A DNA stretch of 58,530 nt, the filler included, from Malassezia furfur (taxonomy: Eukaryota), in assembly GCA_052055015.1 (NCBI GenBank). It is 2 parts of 2 records of this genome, joined end to end, with 100 filler letters (N's around TTAATTAATTAA, not from the genome) between each part and the next. Parts side by side here need not be neighbours in the genome. Positions count along the whole stretch, not along the records: positions 29,331 to 58,530 come from JBQJIT010000107.1; 1 more part is not named here. One strand, written 5' to 3'. A program made the position numbers and the translations under genes. Below, in pieces: positions 29,231 to 54,729 of this stretch (positions are counted from its first letter, which is position 1; each line of letters starts with the position of its first letter). The notes beneath the pieces were generated by a model. The model made no database searches. It worked only from the letters and a program-made list of their open reading frames with translations, and was not told the DNA's origin.

Positions 29231-29330
29231 NNNNNNNNNNNNNNNNNNNNNNNNNNNNNNNNNNNNNNNNNNNNTTAATTAATTAANNNNNNNNNNNNNN
29301 NNNNNNNNNNNNNNNNNNNNNNNNNNNNNN
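29231..29330. other. Artificial contig-join spacer: N44-TTAATTAATTAA-N44
   Basis: Exactly 100 nt, with a palindromic six-frame stop linker at 29275-29286 centred in Ns. Confidence 0.97.
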
Positions 29331-35552: not shown

Positions 35553-38548
35553 TTACTGCCTCCCGAGGCCCTCGGGCGGCACATTCCGCAGCGGGCGCTG
35601 CTGGAAATCGGCCGTGGTCTGCATCACCGTGTTGCCCCACCACGATAGCTTCCACCGGTCGTCGGACGGCAGCTGGATCACAAAGAAGATGAGCAGCTCC
35701 GAAATAATCGTCCCTGCGTCGAGTGCGTTCGCCGTGACAAAGTTGTACTTGGACCACCACCGGAAGTTGTGCCTCCGCAGGTAGTACTGGAACACGAAGG
35801 CCACGATGAAGAATGCGGTAAAGTTGATGCTCGTTGACGCGGGCATCGCCGCGGCCCCGGCGAAGAAGACGGGTACACTGGCGTAGCGCAGCCAGGAGCG
35901 GGGGTAGCGCCGCTTGACGAGCCATACGAGTACGGGCAGGACCGCCCCGACAAACAGGCCGTACAGGATGAAGCGGTAGTAGTGCTCCGTAAAGATGCGC
36001 TGGGGACCAATTACGCCCCACATCATCGACGACGTGAAGAACACGTTGACCGATTGGCACGTCAGATGGTATTCTTGGTTCGGCAGGCACAGGTCCGGCA
36101 CGAGCGACACCATGAGATGCTTCACGCCGAGCTGCACACACACCACGGCGAGAGCGCCGACCAGCTGCACGGCGTACACTGCGCGCGGCGGCAGCTTCAT
36201 GTAGTGCCCCACCTTCATGTCCGACGTGTAGCCCAGGCTGCTGATCAGCGTCTGCACCGTGAGCGTTTTGAACAGCAGGAACGCCTTGGGGTGGCCGTTC
36301 AGCAAGTAGCCGGCAATGATGTCGCCGACGATGTTGGTGCCGATCATCTGCCCACTCAGCGCATACACGTAGCCGCTAGGCAGCGCATACAGCGCCGGGA
36401 TCACGAGCGCGAGCAGGATGAGCGCGGGCGTGATGGACAGCTCCGAGTAGTCCAGCACAATCAGGATCGCGATCAAACACACCACCACGAGCCACTGGTA
36501 CCACCACACGGGCACTGGCTTGTAGCGCCGCATGAGCTTGGCATGAATGTCGTCAGGCGCGCGCGGCCGGAAGCCCAGGCTACGCAGGAAGTCGCTGCCG
36601 TGGTTGCAGATCGCGTGTGCAAACACGGCGGTGACCGTCATGAACCCGGAAAAGTAGGACAACACAAAGGTCGCCGGCAGGTAGATGGGCGAGTAGGCTT
36701 CGTAGCTCTCCTGGTCGAACTTGAACGAGGACATCTCGATCACGCGCTGCGACTTGTACGCCTTGCCGAACCGGTCAAAGGCGCGGCCCATGTTGAAGGG
36801 GAAGTAGGACAGGTTCATGGTGTTGGAGAAGTAGAGGGCCGGCGCCAGGATCCACATGAACAGCACAAATCCGCCAAAGATGTTCATCTCGGCCCACCAC
36901 GGTGTGACGAGCGGCGAGCCGAGATAGGAGGCCTGTGTCCAGTCGAACGTCATGCTCGTGAGGCCCATGCCGTACACGCCCGTCACGATGTTGGCCGTGA
37001 TGTTCTCCTTGGCGATCCAGCACACCCAGCACATCTGCGACAGGGCATTGAAGAAGAAGTTCGGCAGGAAGTTGTACACGCACGCGCCAACGCCCGTGTA
37101 CACAAACCAGCGGAGGCGCGAGATGCCCTGGTCCGACGGTTCTTCTTCTGCGTGCAGCGTGTTGAGGATGGTCGAGGTGACCAATGTCTGCGGCCATACC
37201 ATGTCGGCTGGCCACACCAGGAAGCGGTGCAGGAAGCCCGCGATTCCAAAGCCGGTCACCTGGCTGCAGATGGCAAAGATGAACTCAAACACGGGCTCCA
37301 CGGGCGAGTTGTAGTAGTGCGGCAGCTCGGTCACGAGCAAAAAGTTGATCGCGTACGCCTGCGAGATGGTGATGTTGATCATGATGGTGATCAGCGCGTG
37401 CTCCTTGATGTTGAACGCGCCCGGATTCAGGGTGAAGCGGAAGCCTCCGAGCCACCACGGGAGGTAGTACTCGTCGATCGGCAGCACGTACGCGAGAAAC
37501 TTGCCCATGAAGTAGGCGAGCAGCTGCAGCACCACCGGCGAGAGCAGCGGCGACGGGAAGCGTAGCGACAGGAACGTGTTCACTGCGCCGCCGACGCACG
37601 AGAGCAGCAGCGCCAGGAACCACATGCGCAGCGTCACGGCCGGCATGCTCGGGTCGTCGATGTTGGACACCGACGCACGCACCTCGGCGTACGGCGAATC
37701 TTCCTCGGGGTCAATGTCCGGGTCGGGCTCGACGTAAGGGTCGTGCGGCTCGGCGGCAGGGTCGCGCTTGCCGACGACATGCAGCGGGAAGGAATCTGCA
37801 TCTTCGGGGGTGTATTGGAAGCGTGAGCGCGGGCGCGCCGTCATGTCGCCCACAACGCTGTCGATAGCGATTGAGTGCGCCGTCGACGGCACATCCGAAT
37901 ACTCGCCCACGGACTTGGTGCGGTGCAGCGACACGGCCGGAATGCGGTCCGAGTAGCGTATGTCATTCGGCATTGCGGCATCGGTCTCGTACCTGTCCCA
38001 CTCAAAGGTGTCGCGAGACGACGCCGGCTCGTGTCGTGCCGAGCTGGGGGTGAGCGTTTTCCCGTCGCGGCTCTCGCCGTAGCGGCTGAAGCTATCGGCC
38101 CACGAGAAGCGGTCGAAGAGCGGCTGCTTGGCCGAGTCGCGTACCGACTCGGCCTGGTCGAATGCTTCGTCGTCTTCGTACGCGTCGGTTTCGTCGCGGG
38201 GCAGGTCGAACGATGTCGTGCGCGTGTGGTCCCAGAAGGGGTTGTGCGGCGCGTGCTTCTCGCGCGCGACGCTCACCGATGCTGTGTAAGGCGCCGGATG
38301 TTAGGGTACGTACGAGGCACAAAGGCAAACACGTCATCCTCGTCGTCGTCGTCGGCGGGGAGCAGGTCACTGGCATTGGAATGCGTATAAGCGTGGCTCG
38401 CGACCGACACGTCTTCGGGCACATTGGCGTCATCGGACGGTGGACGGTCCAGGCCAGGATGCCTATGACGCGCTGTGACTGGCCGAGGGGCCGCGCTCTT
38501 GGAGTAAGAGTTGGAGTAGCCGTGGCCCGGCGCACCCGGCGACCCCAT
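35553..38548 (-). CDS. OPT-family oligopeptide transporter; intron 38282-38313
   Basis: EEDSPYAEVRASV, LNPGAFNIKEH, DMKVGHYMKLPPR and WWSKYNFV...ALDAG signatures. The N-terminal exon (MGSPGAPG...) is joined in frame by a 32-nt intron. Confidence 0.93.
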
Positions 38549-38604
38549 AAGCACAAAGGAGGGGCGTCGGTCGGACGGCAGGAAATACACCTCCACACTA
38601 CGGC

Positions 38605-41600
38605 CTATGGGTCCTGGTCCATGGCCAGCGGCTCGGCGCTGGCGTGCGCGGCGGCGGGGGTGTCGTGCGTGTCGTTGCCGCGCCACGGAATGGTCGTCGT
38701 GTCGAGCAAGGAGCGCGCTGGCCCAAACTCGAGTGTGCGGGGCTCGCGCGGTGGCTCGTGCGGCAGCAGCGCCGAGTTGATCGATGCACACGTCTCGTTC
38801 GACAGCAAGTCGGCGACGGGCTGCGCGACGTCGCGGCAGGTGTGGTGCCGGAGCGCAGCGACCAGCTGGCGAAGCGCCGGGGGATGCTCTGCGTCGGGGT
38901 ATAGGTCGGCGGAGTGCCACACCTGGCGCACGGTGCGCGCCAGCGCGATGCGGACGTCCACCACCGGGTCGTGTGCGAGGCGCACGAGGTGGTGGAGGAT
39001 GAGCGACTCGAAGCGCTCGTGCGAGAGGCCGTGCGCAACGAGGGCGTTGACGACGTGCAAGAACGTGACGCGCTGGCGGTAGGCCGCGGCGTCCACCAGG
39101 TCGCACAGCATGCTCAGGAAACCATCGGCGATCGCCTCGTCGTGGGCCGAGAAGGTGGTGTACACCACCGGCACGGCGTGTACGCCCACGTCGCGCAGCG
39201 CATTTACCGGGTCGTTGAGCGCGAGGAGCAGCAGCGTGACCAGGCACCCGTCCTCGTCGGCGAGCAGCAGCGATGGGGCCAGCGCCGGGATGTGCTTGGC
39301 GACGCTCTCACGCAGGCGCCAGTCGTGCGAGTACTGCGAGAGCCACAGCATGGGGAGCTGCTTGAGCTGCGCCTTGGCCGACTCGGTGGGGATGCGGAGC
39401 CAGAACTCGTCGATGTGCTCGAGGAGCGTCGCGGTGACGTCGGTGCAGGTGTCGCGCAGCAGCATCTCTGCGACCGGCACCAAGTCGCGGTTCGCCGCCT
39501 CGGCGCCGATCAGCTTGGCGATCTCGTGCAGCGATGCACCCAGCGAGTTGCGAACATTTTCGGAGGTGTGGTGCGTGAGGCGCAGGTAGAGCTCGCGCAG
39601 CGTCTCCCACTGCGCGGCGCCCATCGTCAGCACCACGGCGGGGAAGTTGAAGGCGACGATCAGCGACTTGTCTGCGTTGCTCAGCAGGTCGCCGGTCTCG
39701 TCCTCCGGCGCGCCGTCCTTGGGTGGCTGCATCGGCTGGCCCAGGAAGAGGTGCACAAGCTCCGGCGGAACGCCCGCAGGGTCCTCGTGGAAGAGGTAGA
39801 TCACCTCGCCGATCATCTCGAACGCGGCGAGCTGCACGTTCGGCGACACGTCCTGGTTGAGCGCACGCATGATGATCACCAGGTCGCGCCGCCGGTCGGC
39901 GCCCGCGGGCTGCAGCGAGAAGATGCCAGGCAGCGAATAGCAGGCCGCCTGGCGCACCTGCCACACGTGGTCGAGCAGCACACGGTTCACCGCAGTGAGT
40001 AGACGCTGTGGCGCATCGGTCGTGGCGTAGTCAAACGCGTTCTCGCCCTGCTCCGCCGTCTGTGCGACGAGCGCCTTGCCGATGATACCGATCGCTGCGG
40101 CGACCTCCTTGCGTACGAAGAATGCGGGGTCCAGCGGCCAGTTGGTAATCTCGGGCACGACGCGCAGCGCAAGCTGCTCGATGGTGAAGCCGCCCTCGAC
40201 AGTGATGGCCGCGAGCAGGTTGACCGACATCATGCGCCCGAGCGCCGACTCCTCGTCGTAATTCCCGTGCTCCAACGAGCGGCCAAGCAGGCCCTCGGAT
40301 GCGGCGCCGAGCGAGGTGCTCGGCGCGGACTGCTTGTCGGCCGCCTGCTCGTCGCTCTGCAGCGAGCGCGCGTCGTTCGCAGGGTCGAAGCGCGAGATGG
40401 CGATCGCAACGTTGTCAAACAGCTCGTTCAGCACCGCCTCGCGCGCGGCGCGTCCAAACTCGTACGGCGCAAGCGGCACCATCTTACCCTCACGCGCGGT
40501 ACCCTGCACGATCAGGTCGGTCGTGCGGACCTCGTCGGCGTTCGCGAGCGCCTCGGGGCTGCTGTCCGACGGCATGCCATCAACCGCCTCGTCAAACTGC
40601 TTGGTGCGCAGGAAGTACTCGACAATCGACGCCTGCGTCGCACCCGACACGGCCGAGTTGGGGTTGAGCAGCAGCGAGCACAGCAGCGGCGTGAAGATGC
40701 CCACCGGCAGCTTGGGGCGGGGGATGATCTCCTCGTCGCTGCGCGGCTCCGGCGGCGCCTCGCCGAGCTCGGCCAGCGGGCAGTTCCGGAAAAAGAACCA
40801 CATGAGCCGCCCGAGCTCAGGCGCAAACACCGCGCTCACCTCGATCTCGTCCGTAGCCAGCTCGTTGAGCAGCGGGATGACATACTCCACCGCGTCGGTC
40901 AAATCCACTTCGCGGATCCACTCGGCCAGGCACCGCGACACCAGCACGCGGTGGTACGCCATGTCGCTCTTGGCAAACAAAAAGATGCGCTCCAGGCTGC
41001 TCAGCCCCTCGTCCAGCGACTCGGTCTCGGGCAGCGTCGGGCTGTCCGTCACCACAGGGTCAAGCGCGGGCTCTTGGACAAACTCGGCCATCGGCGTGTC
41101 CTCCATGTCGTCGAGCCCACGTGCGGCAAAGGGGCCCATGGCCTGCTTGGGCGACACATCGCGCGACACTTCGTCCTCGGCATCGGCGTCGTTACTAGTG
41201 TCCTCGTCCTCGATCGCCTCGCGCTGGTACGAGGCATCTTTTGCGTGCCGCGGCGCATCTGCATGGCCCGATGTCGCGGCCGCCTGGCGCGCCATCTGCC
41301 AGTTGCGCAGGCGCGCACTACTGTCCTCGGCGTCCTCGTCGTCGTCCTCGTTCGCGTTACCGTCGGCCTCCGTCTCGGAGCCAGAGCCGGAGCTGCTCAG
41401 CCCCGAGCCGTTCGAGCCGTCCGTCTCGGAACGCAGCGAGTCGGAATCGTCGCTCAGCGAGTAGCCCGACCGGGGCGGGAGCGCAATGTTGCTCCGCACT
41501 TTCGGGGGGCTGTCGGGGGGGTTGCTCGACACCGCATGCGACGCATGGGGCGAGCCGCGTGGCGACGTCGACATGCTGGATGCAACCGATCCCGCACCGG

Positions 41601-42386
41601 ACGGCGACGATTGGCCTGCATCGCCCACCACAGGCGGCGATGCGCTCAGCGACAGAGAAGACAGCCGAGGGAAACCGAGATTCACCTTATCTGCCGGGCT
41701 TTCCCCACTCGGCGACAACACAGGCGAGCCTTGGGAGCCGGTAGCACCCGCGGGGCTGTTTGCCGCCCCTGGCGATAGGCTCGAGCGTATGGGCGGCGAA
41801 TCCACCCAGATCGAGTTGACCACATCGGGCGCCATGCTGGGGCCACAGGGTGCCTGCTCTTCGGCCGCCTGCTCCAGTGCATTCTCAACAAGCGGCGAAG
41901 ATATCCGCGCGTTGGTCGACGCACTAAACTGGCCCTCGGGCCACATACTGCCGCTGTGCTGGATCCAGTTACCGCCCGGCGGCGAGCTGGCCGTGCCGCC
42001 GAGCGACGAGCCCACCGATGGTTTGCGTCCGAGCGACCAGGTCACACTGAACGGCGGGCTGTACGTCGGCGACGTCGCCGCATGTCGACTTTCGTGATAC
42101 CTCCGCGCGCTGGCCGACTGGGGCGAGCTCGGCGAAGAAGATAGGGCGCGGTCACTCGAATCATACACTGTGCGGTGTGAGCCGTGCGAGGCTATGCCCG
42201 GCTCTCCTCGACCTTCGCGGCGGGGGCGCTGAATGGGGATCGGCTGCGGCACGGCGTGGCCCGCGCCGTGTCGGTCAGCGTCGCCGTCGGACGGCGATTT
42301 CTTGGAAGTTTCTGAGGAATCTGCAGTATGGTCAGCATATGTCCAAGAATCTTGTTGCAATACGAACCTTCATGGGTGTTGGCCAT
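38605..42386 (-). CDS. HEAT-repeat protein, PP4 regulatory subunit 1 / PP2A-A-like, with a long Ser-rich N-terminus; intron 42321-42367
   Basis: LSSLERIFLFAKS, DPAFFVRKEVA, DHVWQVRQAAC, VAFNFPAVVLTMG...W, VRNSLGASLHEIAKLIG, DWRLRE and DPVVDVRIALA. Confidence 0.8.
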
Positions 42387-42448
42387 GATTGTATCGTTTT
42401 GGGCAGGTCACAAACACTGCCCACGCTTGCTTCCCGCAAACAGGGAAG

Positions 42449-42461
42449 AAAAAAAAAAAAA
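42449..42461. promoter_or_regulatory. A13 poly(dA:dT) tract about 60 nt upstream of the HEAT-repeat gene; probable nucleosome-disfavouring element
   Basis: 13 consecutive A in an otherwise GC-rich window. Function inferred. Confidence 0.5.
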
Positions 42462-42852
42462 CAAGATTAAAGGGGCCGGATCTGTCCAAAACAATGCACA
42501 GCGCACAGTCACTGGACTGGGTATATGAGCTGCGTCACAGCAAGCAGCAAGTCGTTGCCTGCGTCCGCGGCCGTGCCGGACCTAAAAAAGCCGATTGTCA
42601 CACCAAAGCCTTCTTGGCGACCCAAGTTATGCGGCAGCAAATCGGGTGGGCGCGCAAATTTGATCTTAATCTCCCTTGTCCCGCTGGCCCTCCACATGTG
42701 CGCGTCAGGGCTGGCCGCGTGCCGAGTACAGGTGCACAGGGTGGGGTAGCGAGTGCTAGGTGCACACAGCGGCACGCCGTGTATGCGTGTCGGAATCAAA
42801 TCACACGCGTACTATGGAGGAATCGAAACGAGAGGCATGTACATACTAGATA

Positions 42853-43425
<573 letters not shown>

Positions 43426-43439
43426 TCACGTTCGTCGAG

Positions 43440-45339
43440 ATGGCGCCCAGTGTAGGTATTCTGTATGCTCACGACAGCCGGTGAAAGGCAGCCGCGTAGC
43501 CGGCGGCAAAATGCTGCGTAGCCGTGCGCGCACGGCGACAATCGATGAATCGGTCGCGAAAAAGATCAAGGAGCACCAGAGCGAGCTCGTGAAGCAGAAG
43601 CAAGAAGAGGGCCTGAAGCGCTTCAAGGGCGAAGACGGTGGCGGGCGCGACACGAACGAAGAGGTGTTCAAAAAGTACGAGAGCTACCGCCGCGAGAGCC
43701 AGCTGCCTACCAAAGTGGAAGACCTTCGAGTACGTTGCGCACCACGACTGACTTGAGATCCTCGTCGACCAGCGCGCGCAGTCGCTGATTCTTCCGATCA
43801 ACTCGTACGCTGTGCCGTTCCACATCAAGACGGTTAAGAATGTGAGCAAGTCGGACGAGGGCGAATACACCTACCTGCGCATCAACTTTGTGACACCCGG
43901 TCAGCTGTCGGGCAAGAAGGACGACGTCCCCTTTGACGACCCGGACGCGACCTTCATCCGCAACATCAGCTACCGCTCGACGGATGCGCGTCACTTTGAT
44001 GACGTTTATAACGAGATCACCGAGATGCGGCGCATTGCGTCCAAGCGCGAGGCGGAGCGCAAGGAGATGGCCGACGTCGTGGAGCAGGACCAGCTCATTC
44101 TCAGCAAGGCGCGGCCCCTCGTGTTGCCAGAAGTCTTCCCGCGCCCGGCGCTGGAGGGCAAGCGTCTCCACGGCTCGCTCACCATCCATCAGAATGGTGT
44201 ACGATTCATGTCGCCGTTGCGGCAGGACCAAAAGATCGATATCCCCTTCAGCAACGTCAAGCATCTCTTCTACCAGCCATGCGACAAGGAGCTCATTGTG
44301 CTCGTCCACTTCCATCTGAAGTCGCCCGTGATGATCGGGAAACGCAAGACGCGTGATATCCAGTTCTACCGCGAGGCGTCCGACGTGCAGTTCGACGAAA
44401 CGGGCAACCGCAAGCGTCGCTACCGCGCGGGCGACGAAGACGAGATTGAGCTCGAGCAGGAAGAGCGGCGCCACCGCCACATGCTCAACAAGGAGTTCAA
44501 GCACTTTGCGCAGCGGATCGCTGATGCGTCCGACGGCCGGCTGCAGGTCGACATTCCGTACCGCGAGCTGGGTTTCAACGGTGTGCCCTCGCGTGCGAGT
44601 GTACTGCTGCAGCCCACGACGGACTGCCTCGTGCATTTGTCGGATCCGCCGTTCCTGGTCGTTACGCTGTCCGAGCTCGAAATCGTGCACCTGGAGCGTG
44701 TGCAATACGGCCTCTCGTCCTTCGACATGGTCTTTGTGTTCCGCGACTTTTCGCGGCCTCCTTTGCACATTAGCAGTGTGCCGAGCTCGTCGTTGGATGA
44801 TGTGAAGCAATGGCTTGAGTACGTTACTGCCACACTGACCCTTAGCTCAGTTGACGTGTGCGTCACAGAGGGCGCCGTCAACCTTAATTGGAGCGCAATC
44901 ATGAAGACGATCAATGAGGGTACGTGGGGAGATACGTGGGAGCTCACACAGACCCGTATGCCTTTTTCCAGGAGGGCGGATGGGAGTGTACGTTTTGCCG
45001 TGTGACTGACCCACAGTCCTCCAAGCTGATGGCAGCGGCAGCGAGGAAGACTCAGAGAGCGAGGCCGAGTCGGAGTTCGACTCGGATCTCGCCGGCGACC
45101 AGCAGGAGTCGACTGACTACTCGGAGAGTGGCTCCAACTTTGGCGCCTCGGAAGAGGACAGCGAAGAAGGCTCCGAGGGCTACGACGACAGCGAAGAAGG
45201 CGAGGACTGGGACGAGCTCGAAGCCAAAGCGGCGCGCGACGATCAAAAGAAGCGCCAGGAGCGGGGCGACGGCAGTGGCAGCGAGGACGACGACGTCAAG
45301 CCGAAGAAGAAGAAGAAGGGCGGCTTTGGTAAACTGTAG
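43440..45339 (+). CDS. SPT16: FACT subunit Spt16 lacking the N-terminal peptidase-like domain (585 aa predicted); introns 43452-43477, 43730-43757, 44819-44845, 44920-44951, 44988-45016
   Basis: [76 protein letters not shown] and [14 protein letters not shown], then an acidic tail and KKKKK. Confidence 0.93.
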
Positions 45340-45656
45340 CGACTTCTACGATAGAGGCAAACGCATACAACGGCGTTGCTCACGTACTCGAGCGTGCCGC
45401 GGACGCGTACACACCGTGCGTGCCCGTCTACGCCGCGCTGCGCGCAGTGCCTCCGACCGCGCACGCATGGGTCGCGTCATTCGGTTGCTTATTCGTCATT
45501 TGCTCAAATTGATTCGTCACGCGTGGTCCAATCGCGCACCGGAATTTACCAACGCCGACACCGTGGCCTAGCGGCCTGTCCAGCAGCCGGGCGCACGCCA
45601 AGGCTAAGAAACGAGAGCGAGAAAGCCAGTGCTATCGTTACGCGAATACGACACTA

Positions 45657-46619
45657 TTAACCGACAACAATCTGAAAGTGTTAGCTTCCGTAGGATGGAT
45701 CGTCGACATACCTTGTTCTCGTCGTCGTTAAAGTCGTATTCAGGGATCTCCAGGTTCAGAGGAGCAGGGCCCTTGCGAATGCGGCCACTGATGTCGTAGT
45801 GGCTACCGTGGCAGGGGCAGAACCAGCCGTCGTAGTCGCCAGCCTCACCGATCGGCACACATCCCAGATGCGTGCAGACACCAATCATGACAAGCCACTC
45901 GGGGCGCTTGACACGCTGAGCGTCCGTCTCCGGGTCGCGGAGCTTGCCCACATCCACGTTCTCGGCCTCCTTGATCTCATCAGGGGTGCGGTGGCGGACA
46001 AACACGGGCTTGCCGCGCCACTTGATGATGGCATTTTTACCCTCGGGGATGTTAGCCATGTCGACCTCGACCTTGGCAAGCGCAAGGACATCGCTCGAGG
46101 CGCTCATCGTCGACAGGAAGTTGGTAACGGTCGAACGAGCGCTCGCGGTAGCCAGGGCACCGAAGCTACCGATTAGAAAGTAGGAGAAAGCACGGTGTGC
46201 CTCGGGGGACTTGGGGCGGTATTGGCTGAAGTCAGGGGTCTCGAGAGCACGGGACGTGGTCGAGAAGGCGCGGACAGGGACCATGGATGCACCAGAGACC
46301 TTGGCTGAGAGTAAGCAACACACCCGTCTAACATACCATTCACCGGCGTGCGCGACAGCACGTTCTGGCCACGAACGCTGTATTTGCTGGTCCACGAGGG
46401 AAGCACATCGATGTCCGCACGAGGGCCAGTGCTCTCGTGGGCGTGCGGGTCCTTCGGCGCCTGGACGTTGAGGTTCAGGCCGCGCGCCAGAGGGACACCC
46501 GTCGCGCCGTACTGGGCGGTCGGACTGCGGTTAGTACGCTGGCAGGCGCTGGGCTCTACCTACCCGACGTTAATGGCCCGGCGCGACACGAGACTCCGAG
46601 AAAAAGCGGCAGAGGACAT
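45657..46619 (-). CDS. RIP1: Rieske iron-sulfur subunit of cytochrome bc1; introns 46525-46563, 46305-46336, 45672-45711
   Basis: MSASSDVLALA, KWRGKPVFVRHRT, CTHLGC, CPCHGS and GPAPLNLEIP. Ends IVVG*. Confidence 0.95.
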
Positions 46620-46866
46620 CACGATTCACACGCGGTAAAGGTGAAAACTTTGCCGAACGGCGGCGTGTGGTAATCAAAGAAAGGCCCAACGGTTACGGGA
46701 GCAATTCCAACTGCAACTTCGGTCGAGTGCCCGGCGCTTCCCGGCAGTTTGTCAGCAACGCACGTGACCTACCAGATTTGGACCCCGAGGCGCGGCTCCA
46801 CGCGGGATTGGCGCTGAGAAGTCTCCGCAGGAAGGTTGCTGCGCCTCCCCATTCTGACTCGACCTT

Positions 46867-47886
46867 ATGTCTACCGACAACCCGAAAATCCTGCCGAGCG
46901 CGAACAGCGCCGAAAAGACCGCGGCGCTTTCGCGCGGCTCCGGTAACCTCGGAACGTTCGGTGTGAAGAGCGGTCTCGCGCAGATGCTCAAGGGCGGTGT
47001 CATCATGGACGTCGTCAATGCGGAGCAGGCGCGCATTGCGGAGGAAGCCGGTGCATGTGCTGTCATGGCGCTGGAGCGCGTTCCGGCAGACATCCGTGCG
47101 GATGGAGGTGTGGCACGCATGTCGGATCCTGCGATGATCCAGGAGATCATCGACGCAGTCACCATTCCGGTCATGGCCAAGTGCCGTATTGGCCACTTTG
47201 TCGAAGCGCAAATCCTGCAGGCGTGCAACGTGGACTATATTGACGAAAGCGAGGTGCTGACGCCGGCGGATGACGAGCACCATATTAACAAGCACAACTT
47301 CAAGGTGCCGTTTGTTTGCGGTTGCCGCAACCTGGGCGAAGCGCTGCGCCGCATTAGCGAGGGCGCTGCCATGATCCGCACCAAGGGTGAGGCCGGTACT
47401 GGCAATGTGGTTGAGGCCGTGCGTCACCAGCGCACGGTCCAGGCTGAGATTCGCCGTGCCGCGAGCATGAGCGACGATGAGCTGTATGCCTATGCGCGTG
47501 ACCTCAAGGTACGTCGGGCTCCTTTGTTGGCTTACATCAGGCTCCCTTCCATCTGCTGAAAGAGACGGCGCGTCTGAAGCGCCTGCCTGTGGTGAATTTT
47601 GCCGCGGGCGGTGTTGCGACGCCGGCCGATGCTGCACTCATGATGCAGCTCGGCAGCGATGGTGTGTTTGTTGGCTCTGGTATTTTGTACGTGCAATCGT
47701 ATGCAACTGACCGGTAGCAAGGGCGAGAATCAGGCGGAGCGTGCTAAGGCCATTGTCCAGGCGGTGGCACACTACAATGATGCACAGAAGCTCGCTGAGG
47801 TGTCTTCGAACCTCGGCGAGGCGATGGTTGGTCTGACGATCTCGGACAACATGAAAGGCGGCAAGCTTGCAACGCGGGGCTGGTAG
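46867..47886 (+). CDS. SNZ1: Pyridoxal 5'-phosphate synthase subunit (Pdx1/Snz1); introns 47509-47540, 47687-47717
   Basis: [60 protein letters not shown] and C-terminal ATRGW. Confidence 0.97.
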
Positions 47887-48148
47887 ATCGGTGCCTTGCC
47901 CCGCTCATCGATTGGGTTTCCCTGTGCATGTGGGTTTCCGAAAATATCTCCGTACATATCTCATAAATGAAATGCGGCAGAACTGCAGGTCCCACGTGGC
48001 CGACGTTCCCAAGTGCGCGGTCGTCGGTTTGGACGACGACAGCGCCAGATCAGAGCTAATATTGGCTTCGTGGCTGTCACTGGGTCCTTTGTCTCTACCC
48101 CCCGTGTACCCGATTGATCAAGTGTCTTTTGTTTGAACTTACCGGATT

Positions 48149-50704
48149 ATGGTGCCTGTAGAAATGGCACCTCCTCCGACGCATTCATATTCGCAAGCGG
48201 CATCCCATGGCCCCAGTGCTCGGGTCGCCAGTGCGGCGGGCCCGCGCTCTGGGCCTGCGGCTGAGTCGCTACCGGTTTCTGTGGGCAGCACAACGCTTCC
48301 TGTGCCCTATGTGGATGTGCGACACCGCACGCCACCCCCGCACGAGCTGTCGCGTCTGTCCCCGCGCGCCTCTTCCGCGATGCCCCACGAAGTTGCCGAT
48401 GGAGCCCCGATGGTCCCTGCTAGTGACAGCATGCCACCGATCCTCTCGAAGCTGAGTGCTGCCAATGAGCAAACGTGGCTTTCCATTGGCTCTGCGGCCG
48501 AGGCGATGGAAGACTACACGAGGGCGCTATCGGCGTACGATTCGGCGCTGCTGCACAATCCGTACTCGGTGCCTGCACTGAGTGCGATGGCGACCATGTA
48601 CCGTACGCTGGATCACTTTGATCTCGCCGTCGAGTGTTTCCAGCGCGTGCTGAATATCACGCCGGACAATGGCGAGGTATGGGGTGCGATGGGCCACTGT
48701 TACCTGATGATGGATGAGCTGCAGAAGGCGTACACCGCGTACCACCAGGCGCTGTACCACCTGCCGAACCCCAAGGAGCCGAAGCTGTGGTACGGCATCG
48801 GCATCCTGTACGACCGCTACGGGTCGCTGGAGCATGCGGAGGAGACGTTCACGAGTGTGGTGCGGATGGACCCCAACTACGAAAAAGCCAACGAGATCTA
48901 CTTCCGTCTTGGCATCATCTACAAGCAGCAGGGCCAGTACGAGTCGAGTCTGGAGTGCTTCAGGTACATCTTGAACAACCCTCCCAAGCCGCTCACCGAG
49001 ATGGACATCTGGTTCCAGATCGGCCACGTATACGAGCAGCAGGAGGAGTACCAACGCGCAAAAGAGGCATACGAACGCGTCTTGTCTGAGAACCCCAATC
49101 ATGCCAAGGTGCTCCAGCAGCTCGGTGGCCTGTACATGCAGTCTGCAACGGGCTTCTCGGACCGCGAGATGGCGATTCAGCTCCTGTCCCAGAGCCTCGA
49201 CTCGGACCCGAGCGACCAAAAAGCGTGGTACCTCTTGGGCCGCGCCTACATGGATGCAGAGGAGTACAACAAGGCGTATGAGGCGTACCAGCAGACCGTG
49301 TACCGCGACGGCAAGAACCCTGTGCTATGGTGCTCGATTGGGATCCTCTACTTCCAGATCAGTCAGTACCACGATGCACTCGGCGCCTACTCGCGCTCGA
49401 TCCGGTTGAACCCGTACATCCCCGAGATCTGGTTCAACCTCGGCATCCTGTACGAATCGTGCAACAACCAGATCTCGGATGCGATCGACGCATATCGCCG
49501 CGTCCTCGAGCTCGAGCCGGAGAACACCACGGTGCAGCGCCGGCTGCAGCTGCTGCAGGACGCCGAGAGCTCCGGAAAACCCGTCCCATCGATCCCTGCG
49601 CCGCGCGACGTGAACCCCGCGCTGTTCTTCACCGCCGCACCCCCGCCGGGCTCGCCGCACCCCGCCGACGAGGCGCGCGAGGGCGCCGAGGGCGCTGCGC
49701 GGCCACCCAAGGACGCCTACCTTCCCCCGCACGACGTCGCTGCGGACAGCTCGGTGGATTTCCCGAAAGGCATGCGCGCGCCGCCAGACATTGACACGCC
49801 GCCGCGTCGCCGCACCGACGATGCCCACCACACCTCGCCCAAGCTGCCGTCGTACGCGGCGACCTATGCCGACTACCGCCACGAGGCGACTGGTCCTGGC
49901 TACAGCAGCGCGGGCCCCACGTCCAACCGGTACTACCAGGCCGAGCCGTATGAGTGGGATCGGCAGTACTACGGCAGCGGCTATGAGCCCGGCCCGCGCG
50001 GTGAACTGATGCCCCCGTCGATGGGCGGCGCTCGCTCGTCGTCGATGCGCTATGCCTACGACGCGCCGTCGGAACGTACACACTACGACATGCGCTCTGG
50101 CCGCCCTTACAACTCGATGCGTAATCCCAGCATGGCGCCGCACGCGCCACGCGGACCGGACGAGTACCGCGAAGAAACGCCGCGTGAGTCAGCAGTGCTC
50201 GATGCGCGCCGCGCGCGGAGACCCGTCGCTGAGCCTCGGCGTGCGCACGATGTGCCCGAGACACGGTCGCCGCGGGCCACGCACGCCGACGCCGTGCGCA
50301 AGCCGAGCGGATCGGCGGCCCGCATGTCCAAGCCCGAGGCGCGCGCCGAGCCGCCGCGCGCGCCGGCGCCGCTGCGTACGCGGGAAGTGGACGAGGACTA
50401 CGACGATGGCGCAGCGAGTGCACTTATGGGCCTCGCTGGCGCGGCCGCGTCGGCATACGAGGCTTCCAACGCTGAGCGCCAGCGCGAGTCGGAGGCCTCG
50501 AGTGACCAAGCGAACAAGCACACCATTGAGGCGCCCGTACCCCCCGAGCCGGCGAAACGGGCACGCAGCGATGCCGAGGCACCGAGTGCTGGCGACATGT
50601 CGCTAGACGAGATGGCGCCCAAGCACCCCGCCGGAGGAGTCGAGGGTCCCCCCCCATCCAGCGCGCCCGATGCGTCGGGCGGAGCCTCCACGGAGCGTAC
50701 CTGA
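48149..50704 (+). CDS. SSN6: General transcriptional co-repressor Ssn6/Cyc8 (TPR)
   Basis: ANEQTWLSIGSAAE, PKEPKLWYGIGILYDRYG, KANEIYFRLGIIYKQQ, DIWFQIGHVYE, YESCNNQISDA and late motif VDEDYDD. Confidence 0.95.
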   Translation: MVPVEMAPPPTHSYSQAASHGPSARVASAAGPRSGPAAESLPVSVGSTTLPVPYVDVRHRTPPPHELSRLSPRASSAMPHEVADGAPMVPASDSMPPILSKLSAANEQTWLSIGSAAEAMEDYTRALSAYDSALLHNPYSVPALSAMATMYRTLDHFDLAVECFQRVLNITPDNGEVWGAMGHCYLMMDELQKAYTAYHQALYHLPNPKEPKLWYGIGILYDRYGSLEHAEETFTSVVRMDPNYEKANEIYFRLGIIYKQQGQYESSLECFRYILNNPPKPLTEMDIWFQIGHVYEQQEEYQRAKEAYERVLSENPNHAKVLQQLGGLYMQSATGFSDREMAIQLLSQSLDSDPSDQKAWYLLGRAYMDAEEYNKAYEAYQQTVYRDGKNPVLWCSIGILYFQISQYHDALGAYSRSIRLNPYIPEIWFNLGILYESCNNQISDAIDAYRRVLELEPENTTVQRRLQLLQDAESSGKPVPSIPAPRDVNPALFFTAAPPPGSPHPADEAREGAEGAARPPKDAYLPPHDVAADSSVDFPKGMRAPPDIDTPPRRRTDDAHHTSPKLPSYAATYADYRHEATGPGYSSAGPTSNRYYQAEPYEWDRQYYGSGYEPGPRGELMPPSMGGARSSSMRYAYDAPSERTHYDMRSGRPYNSMRNPSMAPHAPRGPDEYREETPRESAVLDARRARRPVAEPRRAHDVPETRSPRATHADAVRKPSGSAARMSKPEARAEPPRAPAPLRTREVDEDYDDGAASALMGLAGAAASAYEASNAERQRESEASSDQANKHTIEAPVPPEPAKRARSDAEAPSAGDMSLDEMAPKHPAGGVEGPPPSSAPDASGGASTERT

Positions 50705-50831
50705 GCACCTACCACGTGAACCGTGCCCAGCCCGTGCTGCATATACGCTTAGATAATCGTTACCCCATCCCGCTAGAGCCCACGGGCATTTGGCCGCTGC
50801 CCACGGTTTGTTGCGCTCTGCCATTGCCGCG

Positions 50832-52031
50832 ATGGGGTTGCTGGACCATGTTAGCTCTGCTGTGAACAAAACGAGTCAAAATCTGAAGCCGGGCAAAGAA
50901 GACCGTGCGCCAGAGGGCGCAGCCGCGGAAGATACCGAAGAGCTCGATGAGGAGTCGGGCAACATTCTTCTTAGTCTTATCAGCCAACTTCGCATCGGCA
51001 TGGATCTGCACAAGGTGACGCTGCCCACGTTTGTGCTGGAGCCGCGGAGTATGCTTGAGCGGATTACCGACTTCTTGAGCCACCCCGAGATGATTTTTGG
51101 CGCAGACAAACTGCAGTCGCCCGAGGAGCGCTTTGTGGCCGTGCTTGCATACTACATGTCGGGCTGGCACATCAAACCCAAGGGCGTCAAGAAGCCCTAC
51201 AACCCGATTCTCGGTGAATTTTTCCGGTGCTCCTACAACTACCCCGACGGGAGCAAGGGGTGGTACATTGCTGAGCAAGTGTCGCACCACCCGCCCATCA
51301 GCGCGTTCTACTACGTCTCCGCGGAGAACAATCTACTAATTTACGGCGATTTGCGCCCGCGGAGCAAGTTCCTGGGGAACTCGGCTGCCACTTTGATGGG
51401 TGGCGAGACTAACGTGGCGCTGCTCCAGCGTCCCGAGGACGGCACGTACCGCATTAGCATGCCGAACATGTACGCGCGTGGCATCATGTTTGGGCGCATG
51501 GTGCTGGAGCTGGGTGACACGAGCGAGGTCGAGAACAAAAACAACGACCTGTCGAGTGAAGTGGAATTCAAGGTGAAGGGCTACTTCACGGGCACCTACA
51601 ACGCGGTCGCGGCCAAGGTGCAGCGTGGGAACAAGACGATCGGCGAGCTGAGTGGGAAATGGAGTGACAGGATGGAATACAAGAACCTGCAGTCGGGCCA
51701 GACGCGCGTGCTGTTTGACGCACACAAAGCTTCGGCGGTCCAAAAAGAAGTGCCTCCACTTGAGCACCAGGAGCCCATCGAGTCGCAGCGCCTGTGGGCA
51801 ACAGTCACCGAGGGCATCAAGAAGAAGAACATGGGCCTTGCGACGGAGGCCAAGACGGCAATCGAGGAGGCACAGCGTGAGCAGGCGCGCCAGCGCGAGG
51901 CCGAGGGCAAGTCGTGGTCGCCACACTTTTTCAAGCTGCTCCCCGACGGACGCTACGTGCCCAAGCTCGAGGCGCTCCCGCAGCCGTACCACCCCCCGAA
52001 CGTGGAGAAATACTTTGCGTCGGGTGTCTAG
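50832..52031 (+). CDS. Oxysterol-binding-protein family lipid transfer protein, Osh6/Osh7-like
   Basis: GMDLHKVTLPTFVLEPRSMLER, KKPYNPILGE and EQVSHHPP. The LPTF(I/V)LE motif is typical of the PS/PI4P exchangers. Confidence 0.92.
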   Translation: MGLLDHVSSAVNKTSQNLKPGKEDRAPEGAAAEDTEELDEESGNILLSLISQLRIGMDLHKVTLPTFVLEPRSMLERITDFLSHPEMIFGADKLQSPEERFVAVLAYYMSGWHIKPKGVKKPYNPILGEFFRCSYNYPDGSKGWYIAEQVSHHPPISAFYYVSAENNLLIYGDLRPRSKFLGNSAATLMGGETNVALLQRPEDGTYRISMPNMYARGIMFGRMVLELGDTSEVENKNNDLSSEVEFKVKGYFTGTYNAVAAKVQRGNKTIGELSGKWSDRMEYKNLQSGQTRVLFDAHKASAVQKEVPPLEHQEPIESQRLWATVTEGIKKKNMGLATEAKTAIEEAQREQARQREAEGKSWSPHFFKLLPDGRYVPKLEALPQPYHPPNVEKYFASGV

Positions 52032-52077
52032 GCATAATCTCGCACATATAGTACCGTACCTTGACCGTTTATGTAGT

Positions 52078-52840
52078 TCACTCTGCCTGGCTCGAATGAC
52101 CGCTCTCCCCCGACGACGCACTGTGCGCCGACTCCTCGACAAAAAAGTGTTGTGGAGGCAGCAGCCAATCGGGCACGTAGTCGATGGGCGGTAGGGTGAC
52201 GAGGTCCGTGTCGAACATTTCAATGAAGCATTCGTTGGCGCTGCGCGAGAGCGATCCGGCAAAGCCGCGGTACTGGCGGTGTAAGTGGGGAGCGCGCGAC
52301 CTACCTCGACCAAGATGCTCAGAATGTTCCAGCCCTGCATCTTGCGCAGGCAGCCCAGCAAGGTGCCCGTCTCGAAAATTCCGGCTCTGCGTGAGTGACT
52401 TGTGCAACGTACGTGTCCGTCACGAGCACCGGGTGGTTTCGCACGTCGAGCAGCAGCTCGAGTGCTTCCTTAACGATGGACTCAAGCACGCTGGACGAGT
52501 TGATTTCGTGCGGCGACATGAACAAGCGACTCGCCTTGGATGCCGCGCCGTACGTATGCATCATGCCCGCAACGTTGGGTGTCGGCCATCTCCGCTCGAT
52601 GCCAAAGTGATGCAGCTCGATATGGTTCTTGGCGCAAAATGACTCGAGGGTCGTGGAGGGGTACTCGATCGAGAGCAGCACGATGCTGCGCAGCCCGAGG
52701 GATGCGAGAAATGCGAATGACTCAGGCGTGGATGATGGGTCGCCACTGCGGAAAATATGGGGGCACACATGGGCAAATTCCGGCGGGGTTGTGGCTGCAG
52801 CGAGCTCGACCGTGGGCAGCGCCTCCGTCCGCGCGCTCAT
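52078..52840 (-). CDS. Siw14/OCA-family (Y_phosphatase2) protein with degenerate P-loop, Oca4-like; introns 52387-52412, 52273-52304
   Basis: PPEFAHV..IFRS, FLASLGLRSIV and ALELLLDVRNHPVLV-TDTAGIFETG-TLLGCLRKMQGWN...EYRGFAG...NECFIEMFD. Confidence 0.85.
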
Positions 52841-52941
52841 CGCATCGAGTCAATGCTGAGTCAGCGCGCGCGTTGGGGTTGGCCCCTGCGCAGGGGCCAC
52901 CGCGCGGTGTATTTGAGGCGCGAGTGGCGTTGTGGGCCGCC

Positions 52942-54729
52942 ATGGATACGGCCATGGACCGATTGACCGAGGGGTTCGTGCATCTCGGATGTGCGGACCC
53001 GTCGGCTACGAATGATCTAGACAAACAAGCATGTTTATCACGACAACTACGACGCATGATAGACCGCGGGGGTGGCGAGGTGCTCGTCGCGCTCGTCGGC
53101 GAGGCCAGTCCCCCGCGGGGCACGTACGAGGTGCTCCACGTGCCCTGGGAGCTGCACACGGCATGTTGCGAGCAAATCGAGGCGGCGGCCACGACGCTTG
53201 GTGCGTGTGTTACGCAGCCGTACGCCTCGGCGGCGTACCAGCGCACGGTGCTGCTCGTGCGTGCGGTGCCGCGGGTCGAGGAGGAGCACATCGAGGTGCG
53301 CGTTGCGATCGTCGGCAACGTGGACGCCGGCAAGAGCACGCTGCTGGGCGTGCTGACCAAGGGCGCCCTGGACGACGGGCGAGGGCGCGCGCGCGTGGGC
53401 CTGTTCCGGCACAAGCACGAGCTGGACACGGGGCGTACGTCGAGTGTCGGCACCGAGGTGATGGGCTTCCGTGCGGACGGCCATCCCGTCGTGGAGCTGC
53501 ACGCGGATAGCACTGCGGCACGGCGTGTCGCGTGGGAGACGGTGTGTCGCGAGGCGGCCAAGGTCGTGTCGTTTATCGACCTCGCGGGCCACGAGCGCTA
53601 CCTCAAGACGACCGTGTACGGCATGACCAGTGGGCTGCCCGACTACGTGGTGCTCATGGTCGGTGCAAATGCCGGACTGATTGGGATGAGCAAGGAACAC
53701 CTGGGGATTGCGCTGGCGCTCGGCATCCCCGTGTGTGTGGTGGTGACCAAGGTGGACATGTGCCCTGCACACGTCCGCGAGGCGACGCTGAAGCAGATCT
53801 TCAAGGTGCTGCACTCGCCTGGGTGTCGCAAGACGCCCGTGCGCATCGACAGTGCCGAGGCACTCGCCGACGCCGCGGCGCAGCTTCCCGTGGAGCGCAT
53901 CTGCCCCGTGTTTGAGGTGAGCAACGTCACGGGCGAGCACCTCGACTTGCTGCGCAACTTCTTCAACCTGCTGCCCTCGAGCCAGGCGCGCTACGTGCCG
54001 CTGCAGCACGAGCCCGTCGAGATGCCCATTACGGACGTGTTCAGCGTGCCGTTTGTTGGGACGGTCGTGTCCGGCGTGCTGACGTCCGGCGTGGTGAATG
54101 CCGGCGACACGCTGCTGCTTGGCCCAGACAGCCTGGGCCAGTTTGTGCCGTCGGCGGTGCGCTCCATCCAGCGCAAGCGTGTCCCGGTCGAGAGCGCCAG
54201 CGCGGGGCAGTCGGTGAGCTTCGCGCTGAAGCGCATCCGGCGCAACCAGGTGCGCAAGGGCATGCTGCTCCTTGCGCGCACGGCGCAGGCGCCCGTGGCG
54301 CATCAAGAGTTTGAGGCCGAGGTGCTCTGTCTGTACCACAGCACCACGCTCTCGCTTGGCTCGTGCATTGTGCTGCACGCTGCCAGCATCCGGCAGACGG
54401 TGCGGATCGTGGCGATCGCCAAGATGGACGCACATGCGGCGCGCCCGACAGCGGCGCTGCGCCACGCCACGGACGACACTAAGCCCGTGGTGCGCATGGG
54501 CGACCGCGCGCGCGTCCGGCTCCAGTTTCTGGCGCAGCCCGAATACATCCGGCCAGGTACCAAGCTGATTGCGCGCGAGGGCAAGACGCGGCTTGTGGGC
54601 GTCGTGCGCGACGTCGGCGATGGAATGCAGCTGACGCCCGCGGCGCCAGCGCCGTGGCGCGCGGCGCGCCCAGCAGGGCCCGCGGCGCTGGCGCCGCCGT
54701 CTGCAACACGCCTGTCGGGAACTGCGTAG
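52942..54729 (+). CDS. GTPBP1: GTP-binding protein 1-like translational GTPase
   Basis: GNVDAGKST, LDDGRG, LFRHKHE, GRTSSV, FIDLAGHERYLKTT and TKVD, followed by EF-Tu-like beta-barrel domains. Confidence 0.9.
   Translation: MDTAMDRLTEGFVHLGCADPSATNDLDKQACLSRQLRRMIDRGGGEVLVALVGEASPPRGTYEVLHVPWELHTACCEQIEAAATTLGACVTQPYASAAYQRTVLLVRAVPRVEEEHIEVRVAIVGNVDAGKSTLLGVLTKGALDDGRGRARVGLFRHKHELDTGRTSSVGTEVMGFRADGHPVVELHADSTAARRVAWETVCREAAKVVSFIDLAGHERYLKTTVYGMTSGLPDYVVLMVGANAGLIGMSKEHLGIALALGIPVCVVVTKVDMCPAHVREATLKQIFKVLHSPGCRKTPVRIDSAEALADAAAQLPVERICPVFEVSNVTGEHLDLLRNFFNLLPSSQARYVPLQHEPVEMPITDVFSVPFVGTVVSGVLTSGVVNAGDTLLLGPDSLGQFVPSAVRSIQRKRVPVESASAGQSVSFALKRIRRNQVRKGMLLLARTAQAPVAHQEFEAEVLCLYHSTTLSLGSCIVLHAASIRQTVRIVAIAKMDAHAARPTAALRHATDDTKPVVRMGDRARVRLQFLAQPEYIRPGTKLIAREGKTRLVGVVRDVGDGMQLTPAAPAPWRAARPAGPAALAPPSATRLSGTA

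Follow-up and report, generated by a model that had tools for sequence, protein, structure and literature searches.

The stretch of Malassezia furfur DNA analyzed here (the window, 58,530 nucleotides with filler) carries a six-exon SPT16 gene on the plus strand. Spliced from 43440 to 45339, its open reading frame encodes 585 aa with zero internal stops, and all five introns are of the GT-AG type and very short (26, 28, 27, 32, and 29 nt). The gene lies head-to-head with ATG8, whose start codon at 43309 on the minus strand leaves exactly 130 nt to the SPT16 start.

42880-43309, minus strand: ATG8, head-to-head with SPT16 (PF02991, E 6e-23); 3′ end approximate
43310-43439, no strand: divergent intergenic region between ATG8 and SPT16, 130 nt, with no N-domain relic, one CACGTG, and one ACGCGT
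43440-43451, plus strand: SPT16 exon 1, a four-codon micro-exon with the start codon; an identical exon occurs in the second copy
43452-43477, plus strand: SPT16 intron 1, 26 nt, GT-AG; the spliced start agrees with the public M. furfur protein
43478-43729, plus strand: SPT16 exon 2, covering the last part of the ancestral linker and the first part of the dimerization region; 55% identity to residues 459-547 of Testicularia Spt16
43758-44818, plus strand: SPT16 exon 3, dimerization domain (PF08644) and tandem-PH middle domain (PF24824, PF08512)
44846-44919 and 44952-44987, plus strand: SPT16 exons 4 and 5, end of the middle domain
45017-45339, plus strand: SPT16 exon 6, acidic C-terminal domain (PF21091) and lysine-rich tail; stop codon at 45337-45339

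The model differs from the public M. furfur protein KAI3628175.1 (585 aa) at a single one of 585 residues and from a second public M. furfur record at 12. Runs of N occur in the whole window only at 29231-29274 and 29287-29330, 14 kb from SPT16; these two 44-base runs, with 12 bases between them, join contigs C106 and C107. The original prediction of a four-codon start exon followed by a 26-nt intron, a 585-aa product, a divergent ATG8 gene 130 nt upstream, and no assembly gap nearby is thus borne out, the closest N run being 14 kb upstream.

Domain content of the short Spt16

The encoded protein is 71% identical over 569 aa to the full-length Spt16 of Testicularia (1033 aa), but the alignment starts only at Testicularia residue 459. 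The Pfam families SPT16, PH_SPT16, Rtt106-like, and SPT16_C were present, whereas neither the N-lobe (PF14826) nor the M24, peptidase-like domain (PF00557) was detected by Pfam in this protein, so that the earlier claim of a product beginning in the linker and missing the N-terminal domain (NTD) holds. The dimerization domain (PF08644, E 5e-44) matched PDB 4khb (Spt16D) at residues 67-189, the tandem-PH middle domain (PF24824, E 6e-48; PF08512, E 7e-20) was 80% identical to that of Testicularia, and the acidic C-terminal domain (PF21091) scored 30.1 bits against a cut-off of 27.1; the solved Spt16D (4khb) and Spt16M (4kho/4ioy) structures were matched over nearly their full length. Compared with fungal Spt16/Cdc68 (PDB 7nky_Q, 7xt7_j, 4khb, 4kho), the dimerization, middle, and acidic domains are likewise complete and in order, but residues 1 to about 458, comprising the PF14826 N-lobe and the PF00557 C-lobe, are missing and the new start falls in the linker. 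Across nine Malassezia proteins the middle domain was 79-82% identical to that of Testicularia, compared with 72% for full-length Meira. Where an NTD is present, its identity to the Testicularia NTD is 56% in Meira and 68% in Violaceomyces. Judged from these alignments, the retained domains do not appear to be decaying, being fully aligned and conserved as in full-length relatives. The gene for the partner subunit, POB3, was complete, with POB3_N, SSrecog, PH1, and Rtt106-like domains (contig C612; one copy found).

The second gene copy and the search for an N-terminal domain

SPT16 was found at only two places in the genome assembly (13.7 Mb, 1856 contigs), in the window (contig C107) and on contig C41, and both are short. 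On C41 the start, the first intron, and the divergent ATG8 are as in the window copy, and window positions 36148-53102 are collinear with C41 21000-38000 at 88% DNA identity over 17 kb. Haploid M. furfur assemblies are given as 8.1-8.2 Mb and hybrid parents as about 10% apart (PMC9040865), and we infer that this genome is an M. furfur hybrid with two subgenomes and a short SPT16 in both. That both subgenome copies are short argues against a local misassembly. A full-length SPT16 elsewhere, which would have made the window copy a partial duplicate, was sought and not found, the sole other copy being equally short.

The NTD itself is likely absent from this genome, as judged from several kinds of sequence search. 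The real matches of two full-length Spt16 queries lay at the two known loci and began no earlier than about residue 455, and among three NTD-containing queries none detected an NTD: one matched by its linker part and had one further hit at E 0.74, and two matched nothing. A genome search with the N-lobe family PF14826 produced no candidate, with the prokaryotic controls of that search also silent. The PF00557 search returned 10 places, down to 66 bits, where Testicularia Spt16 scores 103 bits on the same family. We considered that an NTD might be hidden among these M24 peptidases, but none of the 10 loci is of Spt16 type, all scoring at most 13.5 bits on an NTD profile built from 18 fungal proteins, compared with 324-609 bits for 9 of 9 NTD-bearing controls from outside this genome. 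Six of the 10 were scanned with Pfam and are M24 proteins, three of them with AMP_N or Creatinase_N-type N-domains. Run on all six reading frames of the window, the same profile gave no match (lowest E-value 7). A relic of the NTD upstream of the start was also considered and rejected; one match reached query residue 403 through a stop codon and was judged an alignment overrun, and against shuffled sequences 1 of 18 comparisons fell below p = 0.05 (0.013), a result not repeated in other species.

An alternative explanation for these results is gene fission, in which the NTD would be made in Malassezia as a separate protein encoded elsewhere, either rejoining FACT or acting alone. The break does fall in the flexible linker, where a fission would be expected to fall, Tof1 is kept, and the assembly is incomplete, with three of nine genes seen in one copy only and fragmentation throughout. 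Set against this, no NTD appeared in an assembly of two subgenomes, even though family searches of it were sensitive enough to pick up POB3 exons at 24-44 bits. The same family search gave no Csm3/Swi3, however, and may overlook real genes. Nor did searches outside this genome give a free NTD named as Malassezia. When the Testicularia NTD was compared with proteins shorter than 568 aa, 58 of 6144 candidates matched, none named as Malassezia, Acaromyces, or Lipomyces, with most carrying no name. Sixteen NTD-only or fragmentary matches were looked up (20 records including two short C-part proteins and two fragments), and none was named from these genera; those of NTD type that had names proved to be partial sequences or records from a single species, all in other taxa. 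An NTD profile search of representatives clustered at 50% gave 7575 matches, of which 150 were listed, and at that level of clustering a free NTD might be masked by a full-length representative. A search of the ESM Atlas that skipped C-part families recovered only clusters of bacterial aminopeptidase P. We therefore consider fission very improbable. Of the two possibilities first raised for this gene, a naturally minimal FACT is supported by the empty NTD searches of the genome and the equally short second copy, while fission found no support in this genome from NTD queries, PF14826, PF00557, or the NTD profile.

Short forms across Malassezia and in other fungi

The short form extends across the genus. 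Named Malassezia Spt16 sequences comprised 16 proteins from 15 species, 501-597 aa long (in the largest of their clusters, 40 of 212 members were read), and included M. cuniculi, the deepest Malassezia branch in our tree. Relatives of 195-623 aa numbered 714, and the top seven were 86-95% identical and without an N-domain family; among 2417 relatives longer than 623 aa the highest identity was 77%, and the 120 that were listed included no protein named Malassezia. Eleven Malassezia Spt16 records carry the name ‘Xaa-Pro aminopeptidase’ although they have no peptidase-like domain.

Metagenomes yielded 38 SPT16 loci. All eight Malassezia-like loci (88-90% identity) had ATG8 head-to-head and no NTD signal, while among the other 30 loci all 24 that were informative, with at least 775 nt upstream, carried NTD matches (66-609 bits), the other six being too short upstream to judge. 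Downstream of SPT16 the Malassezia-like loci had RIP1 (8 of 8) and SNZ (7 of 8), with a HEAT gene upstream in 7 of 8; their conserved gene order is HEAT-repeat gene, ATG8, SPT16, RIP1, SNZ. In 10 of 10 Malassezia-type loci a first exon of 3-7 codons precedes a phase-0 intron 26-39 nt long, and the distance between the SPT16 and ATG8 starts is 125-215 nt. The divergent promoter contains CACGTG in all 10 of these loci and ACGCGT in eight (all 10 have ACGCG), lying 26-68 nt upstream of the SPT16 start; the motifs were chosen after inspection, with single-locus p values of 0.07-0.6. We take them to resemble E-box and MCB (G1/S) elements.

These patterns also bear on whether the short gene could be an artefact of assembly or annotation, or a partial copy accompanying a full-length gene. 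The assembly is indeed fragmented, but two separately assembled copies with 88% DNA identity share the arrangement, eight independent metagenome contigs show it as well, named Malassezia records from contigs of 0.77-3.1 Mb give the same short protein, and the first micro-exon and intron are conserved. An artefact or partial duplicate is largely refuted by these observations and can hardly be the explanation; the possibility of a misassembly raised initially was checked indirectly, through the second contig, collinear at 88% over 17 kb, and through the other species with the same arrangement.

Short Spt16 proteins were also found in two other groups, in both cases known from annotated proteins alone. 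In Lipomycetaceae there were 21 such proteins under 13 species names (528-576 aa), and in Acaromyces ingoldii one of 590 aa, which with two near-identical or related records spans 590-639 aa. Alignments of the Lipomycetaceae and Acaromyces proteins to Testicularia start at residues 459-478 with no NTD, and within each short-form group the proteins share a conserved first methionine of their own, a pattern that favors true starts over mis-annotation. These proteins thus resemble those of Malassezia in having no NTD but differ in origin. In quick maximum-likelihood trees of 46 rows, the Malassezia clade had SH-aLRT support of 100 and was sister to Ustilaginomycetes (97), Acaromyces was sister to full-length Meira, and Lipomycetaceae fell among ascomycetes. 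A single origin of the short forms was rejected by a topology test on 25 of those 46 rows (p-AU 4.7e-8 with Malassezia and Acaromyces joined, 6.3e-6 with all joined). As reconstructed from these protein sequences, the tree would need three separate changes. In Lipomycetaceae and Acaromyces the short forms may reflect loss, fission, or an unannotated long intron. Overall, loss of the Spt16 NTD is probably recurrent in fungi.

Some isolated records were set apart from this count. Spt16 consists of the C-part only in a 607-aa protein of Dacryopinax primogenitus and in a 577-aa protein of Athelia sp. TMB, the latter with two records; both are single-species annotations and were left out of the loss count. 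Mycena albidolilacea has a 454-aa NTD-only protein, on a 1.9-Mb contig. These oddities of Dacryopinax, Athelia, and Mycena may be mis-annotations, paralogs, or further events. One sequence assigned to the fern Adiantum nelumboides is almost identical to the Acaromyces ingoldii Spt16 and is probably fungal contamination of the fern assembly.

FACT function and evolution with a short Spt16

The gene groups with the SPT16 of its nearest relatives, and both loci in the genome are short with no other copy type, making it the Malassezia SPT16 ortholog. We are confident, short of certainty, that it is a working gene whose NTD was truly lost in the genus ancestor with core FACT activity kept. The genus ancestor would have deleted the peptidase-like NTD of about 450 aa; translation now begins from a micro-exon, inside the former linker. 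The short Spt16 would pair with Pob3 through its dimerization domain, and nucleosome reorganization would be kept, the middle domain binding H3-H4 and the acidic tail H2A-H2B. What would be lost, if the NTD acted as in yeasts, is a docking module for the Tof1 C-terminus, MCM, Mrc1-FBD2, Abo1, and Swi6/HP1. Recruitment to the fork would then most likely run through NTD-independent middle-domain contacts (Mrc1-FBD1, Pol1, and co-chaperoning of histones with Mcm2), through the mass action of a higher FACT concentration, or through both. Expression, function, and the route of compensation of the short Spt16 are inferred throughout.

Engineered yeast proteins offer the closest comparison. The same module is missing and the same core kept in the spt16-deltaN alleles and S(deltaN)-P FACT described in PMC8860610 and PMC10681723, but those are laboratory alleles, whereas the Malassezia short form is the natural wild type fixed across a genus. 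With the engineered alleles, yeast is sensitive to hydroxyurea, FACT binds MCM less strongly, and parental histones are recycled less well. Yeast FACT without the NTD reorganizes nucleosomes nearly normally, its enhancement of chromatin replication is down 58%, and a 4-8-fold excess rescues that replication defect (PMC8860610); deletion of the NTD weakens MCM binding and lagging-strand histone recycling (PMC10681723). Further sources place Mrc1-FBD1 and the Pol1-NTE in contact with Spt16-MD (PMC11380579), describe FACT sites on the replisome as apparently redundant (PMC12839341), and present the NTD as unseen in the FACT-hexasome structure and as a platform for H3-H4, CHD1, Tof1, Swi6, and the Abo1 FIN helix (bioRxiv 10.1101/2024.06.17.599424). 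Since the NTD is needed in yeast for survival in hydroxyurea (PMC8860610) and for parental histone transfer (PMC10681723), its loss should carry a cost.

The genome keeps two copies of Tof1, which is known to bind the NTD, and a simple story of co-loss therefore does not fit. The PDB match to Tof1 spans its N-terminal part only. A family search of the genome for Csm3/Swi3 (PF07962), which had no positive control, gave no candidate, which reflects either a true co-loss from the fork protection complex or a gene that the search overlooked.

A competing account of why the NTD was lost, as distinct from whether it was lost, is that inheritance of H3K9me/HP1 heterochromatin is absent in reduced genomes, leaving the NTD dispensable; we consider this unlikely. 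S. cerevisiae, which is not known to have H3K9me, keeps a 1035-aa Spt16, and this counts against it. On the other side, heterochromatin inheritance in fission yeast uses NTD-Swi6 and NTD-Swi1 contacts, with the NTD binding Swi6 (PMC9953268) and maintenance abolished by deletion of the Swi1 CTD (PMC11380579), and Malassezia are described as lacking RNAi and having genomes below 9 Mb (PMC7025860). Lipomyces starkeyi, however, has H3K9 methylation and an HP1 (PMC7397231), yet its annotated Spt16 is 530 aa.

In a eukaryote-wide survey, an N-lobe and a peptidase domain belong to the standard make-up of Spt16 (PMC6502085). We found no report of natural loss of the Spt16 NTD in a search, largely of papers open without subscription, on Spt16 together with Malassezia, Lipomyces, microsporidia, lineage-specific loss, or domain architecture, and only a passing mention in literature joining Malassezia and Spt16. 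Public annotations already include the short proteins, in some cases under a peptidase name, and no paper was found remarking on them.

A genus-wide loss of a domain from an essential chromatin factor is real. It touches a standing question, namely why Spt16 has so strongly conserved a peptidase domain that is catalytically dead and that budding yeast can do without. Recent work casts the NTD as the docking site linking FACT with the replication fork and with the recycling of parental histones. A wider proposal, to which we give slightly less than even weight, is that the NTD was lost outright at least three times in fungi (all Malassezia, Acaromyces, and Lipomycetaceae), each time by a cut within the same linker, including in a yeast with H3K9me/HP1, that FACT without it replicates chromatin and passes on parental histones, and that its partners lost their NTD-binding motifs in step. 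If this is true, motif loss in Tof1, Mrc1, Abo1/Yta7, and possibly Csm3 would map the true NTD partners by co-evolution. The compact 585-aa Spt16 may also serve structural work on FACT. The short forms are natural test cases for co-evolution of partner motifs and for histone-recycling assays in a natural deltaN organism, and whole lineages without the NTD would show that docking can be bypassed over evolutionary time.
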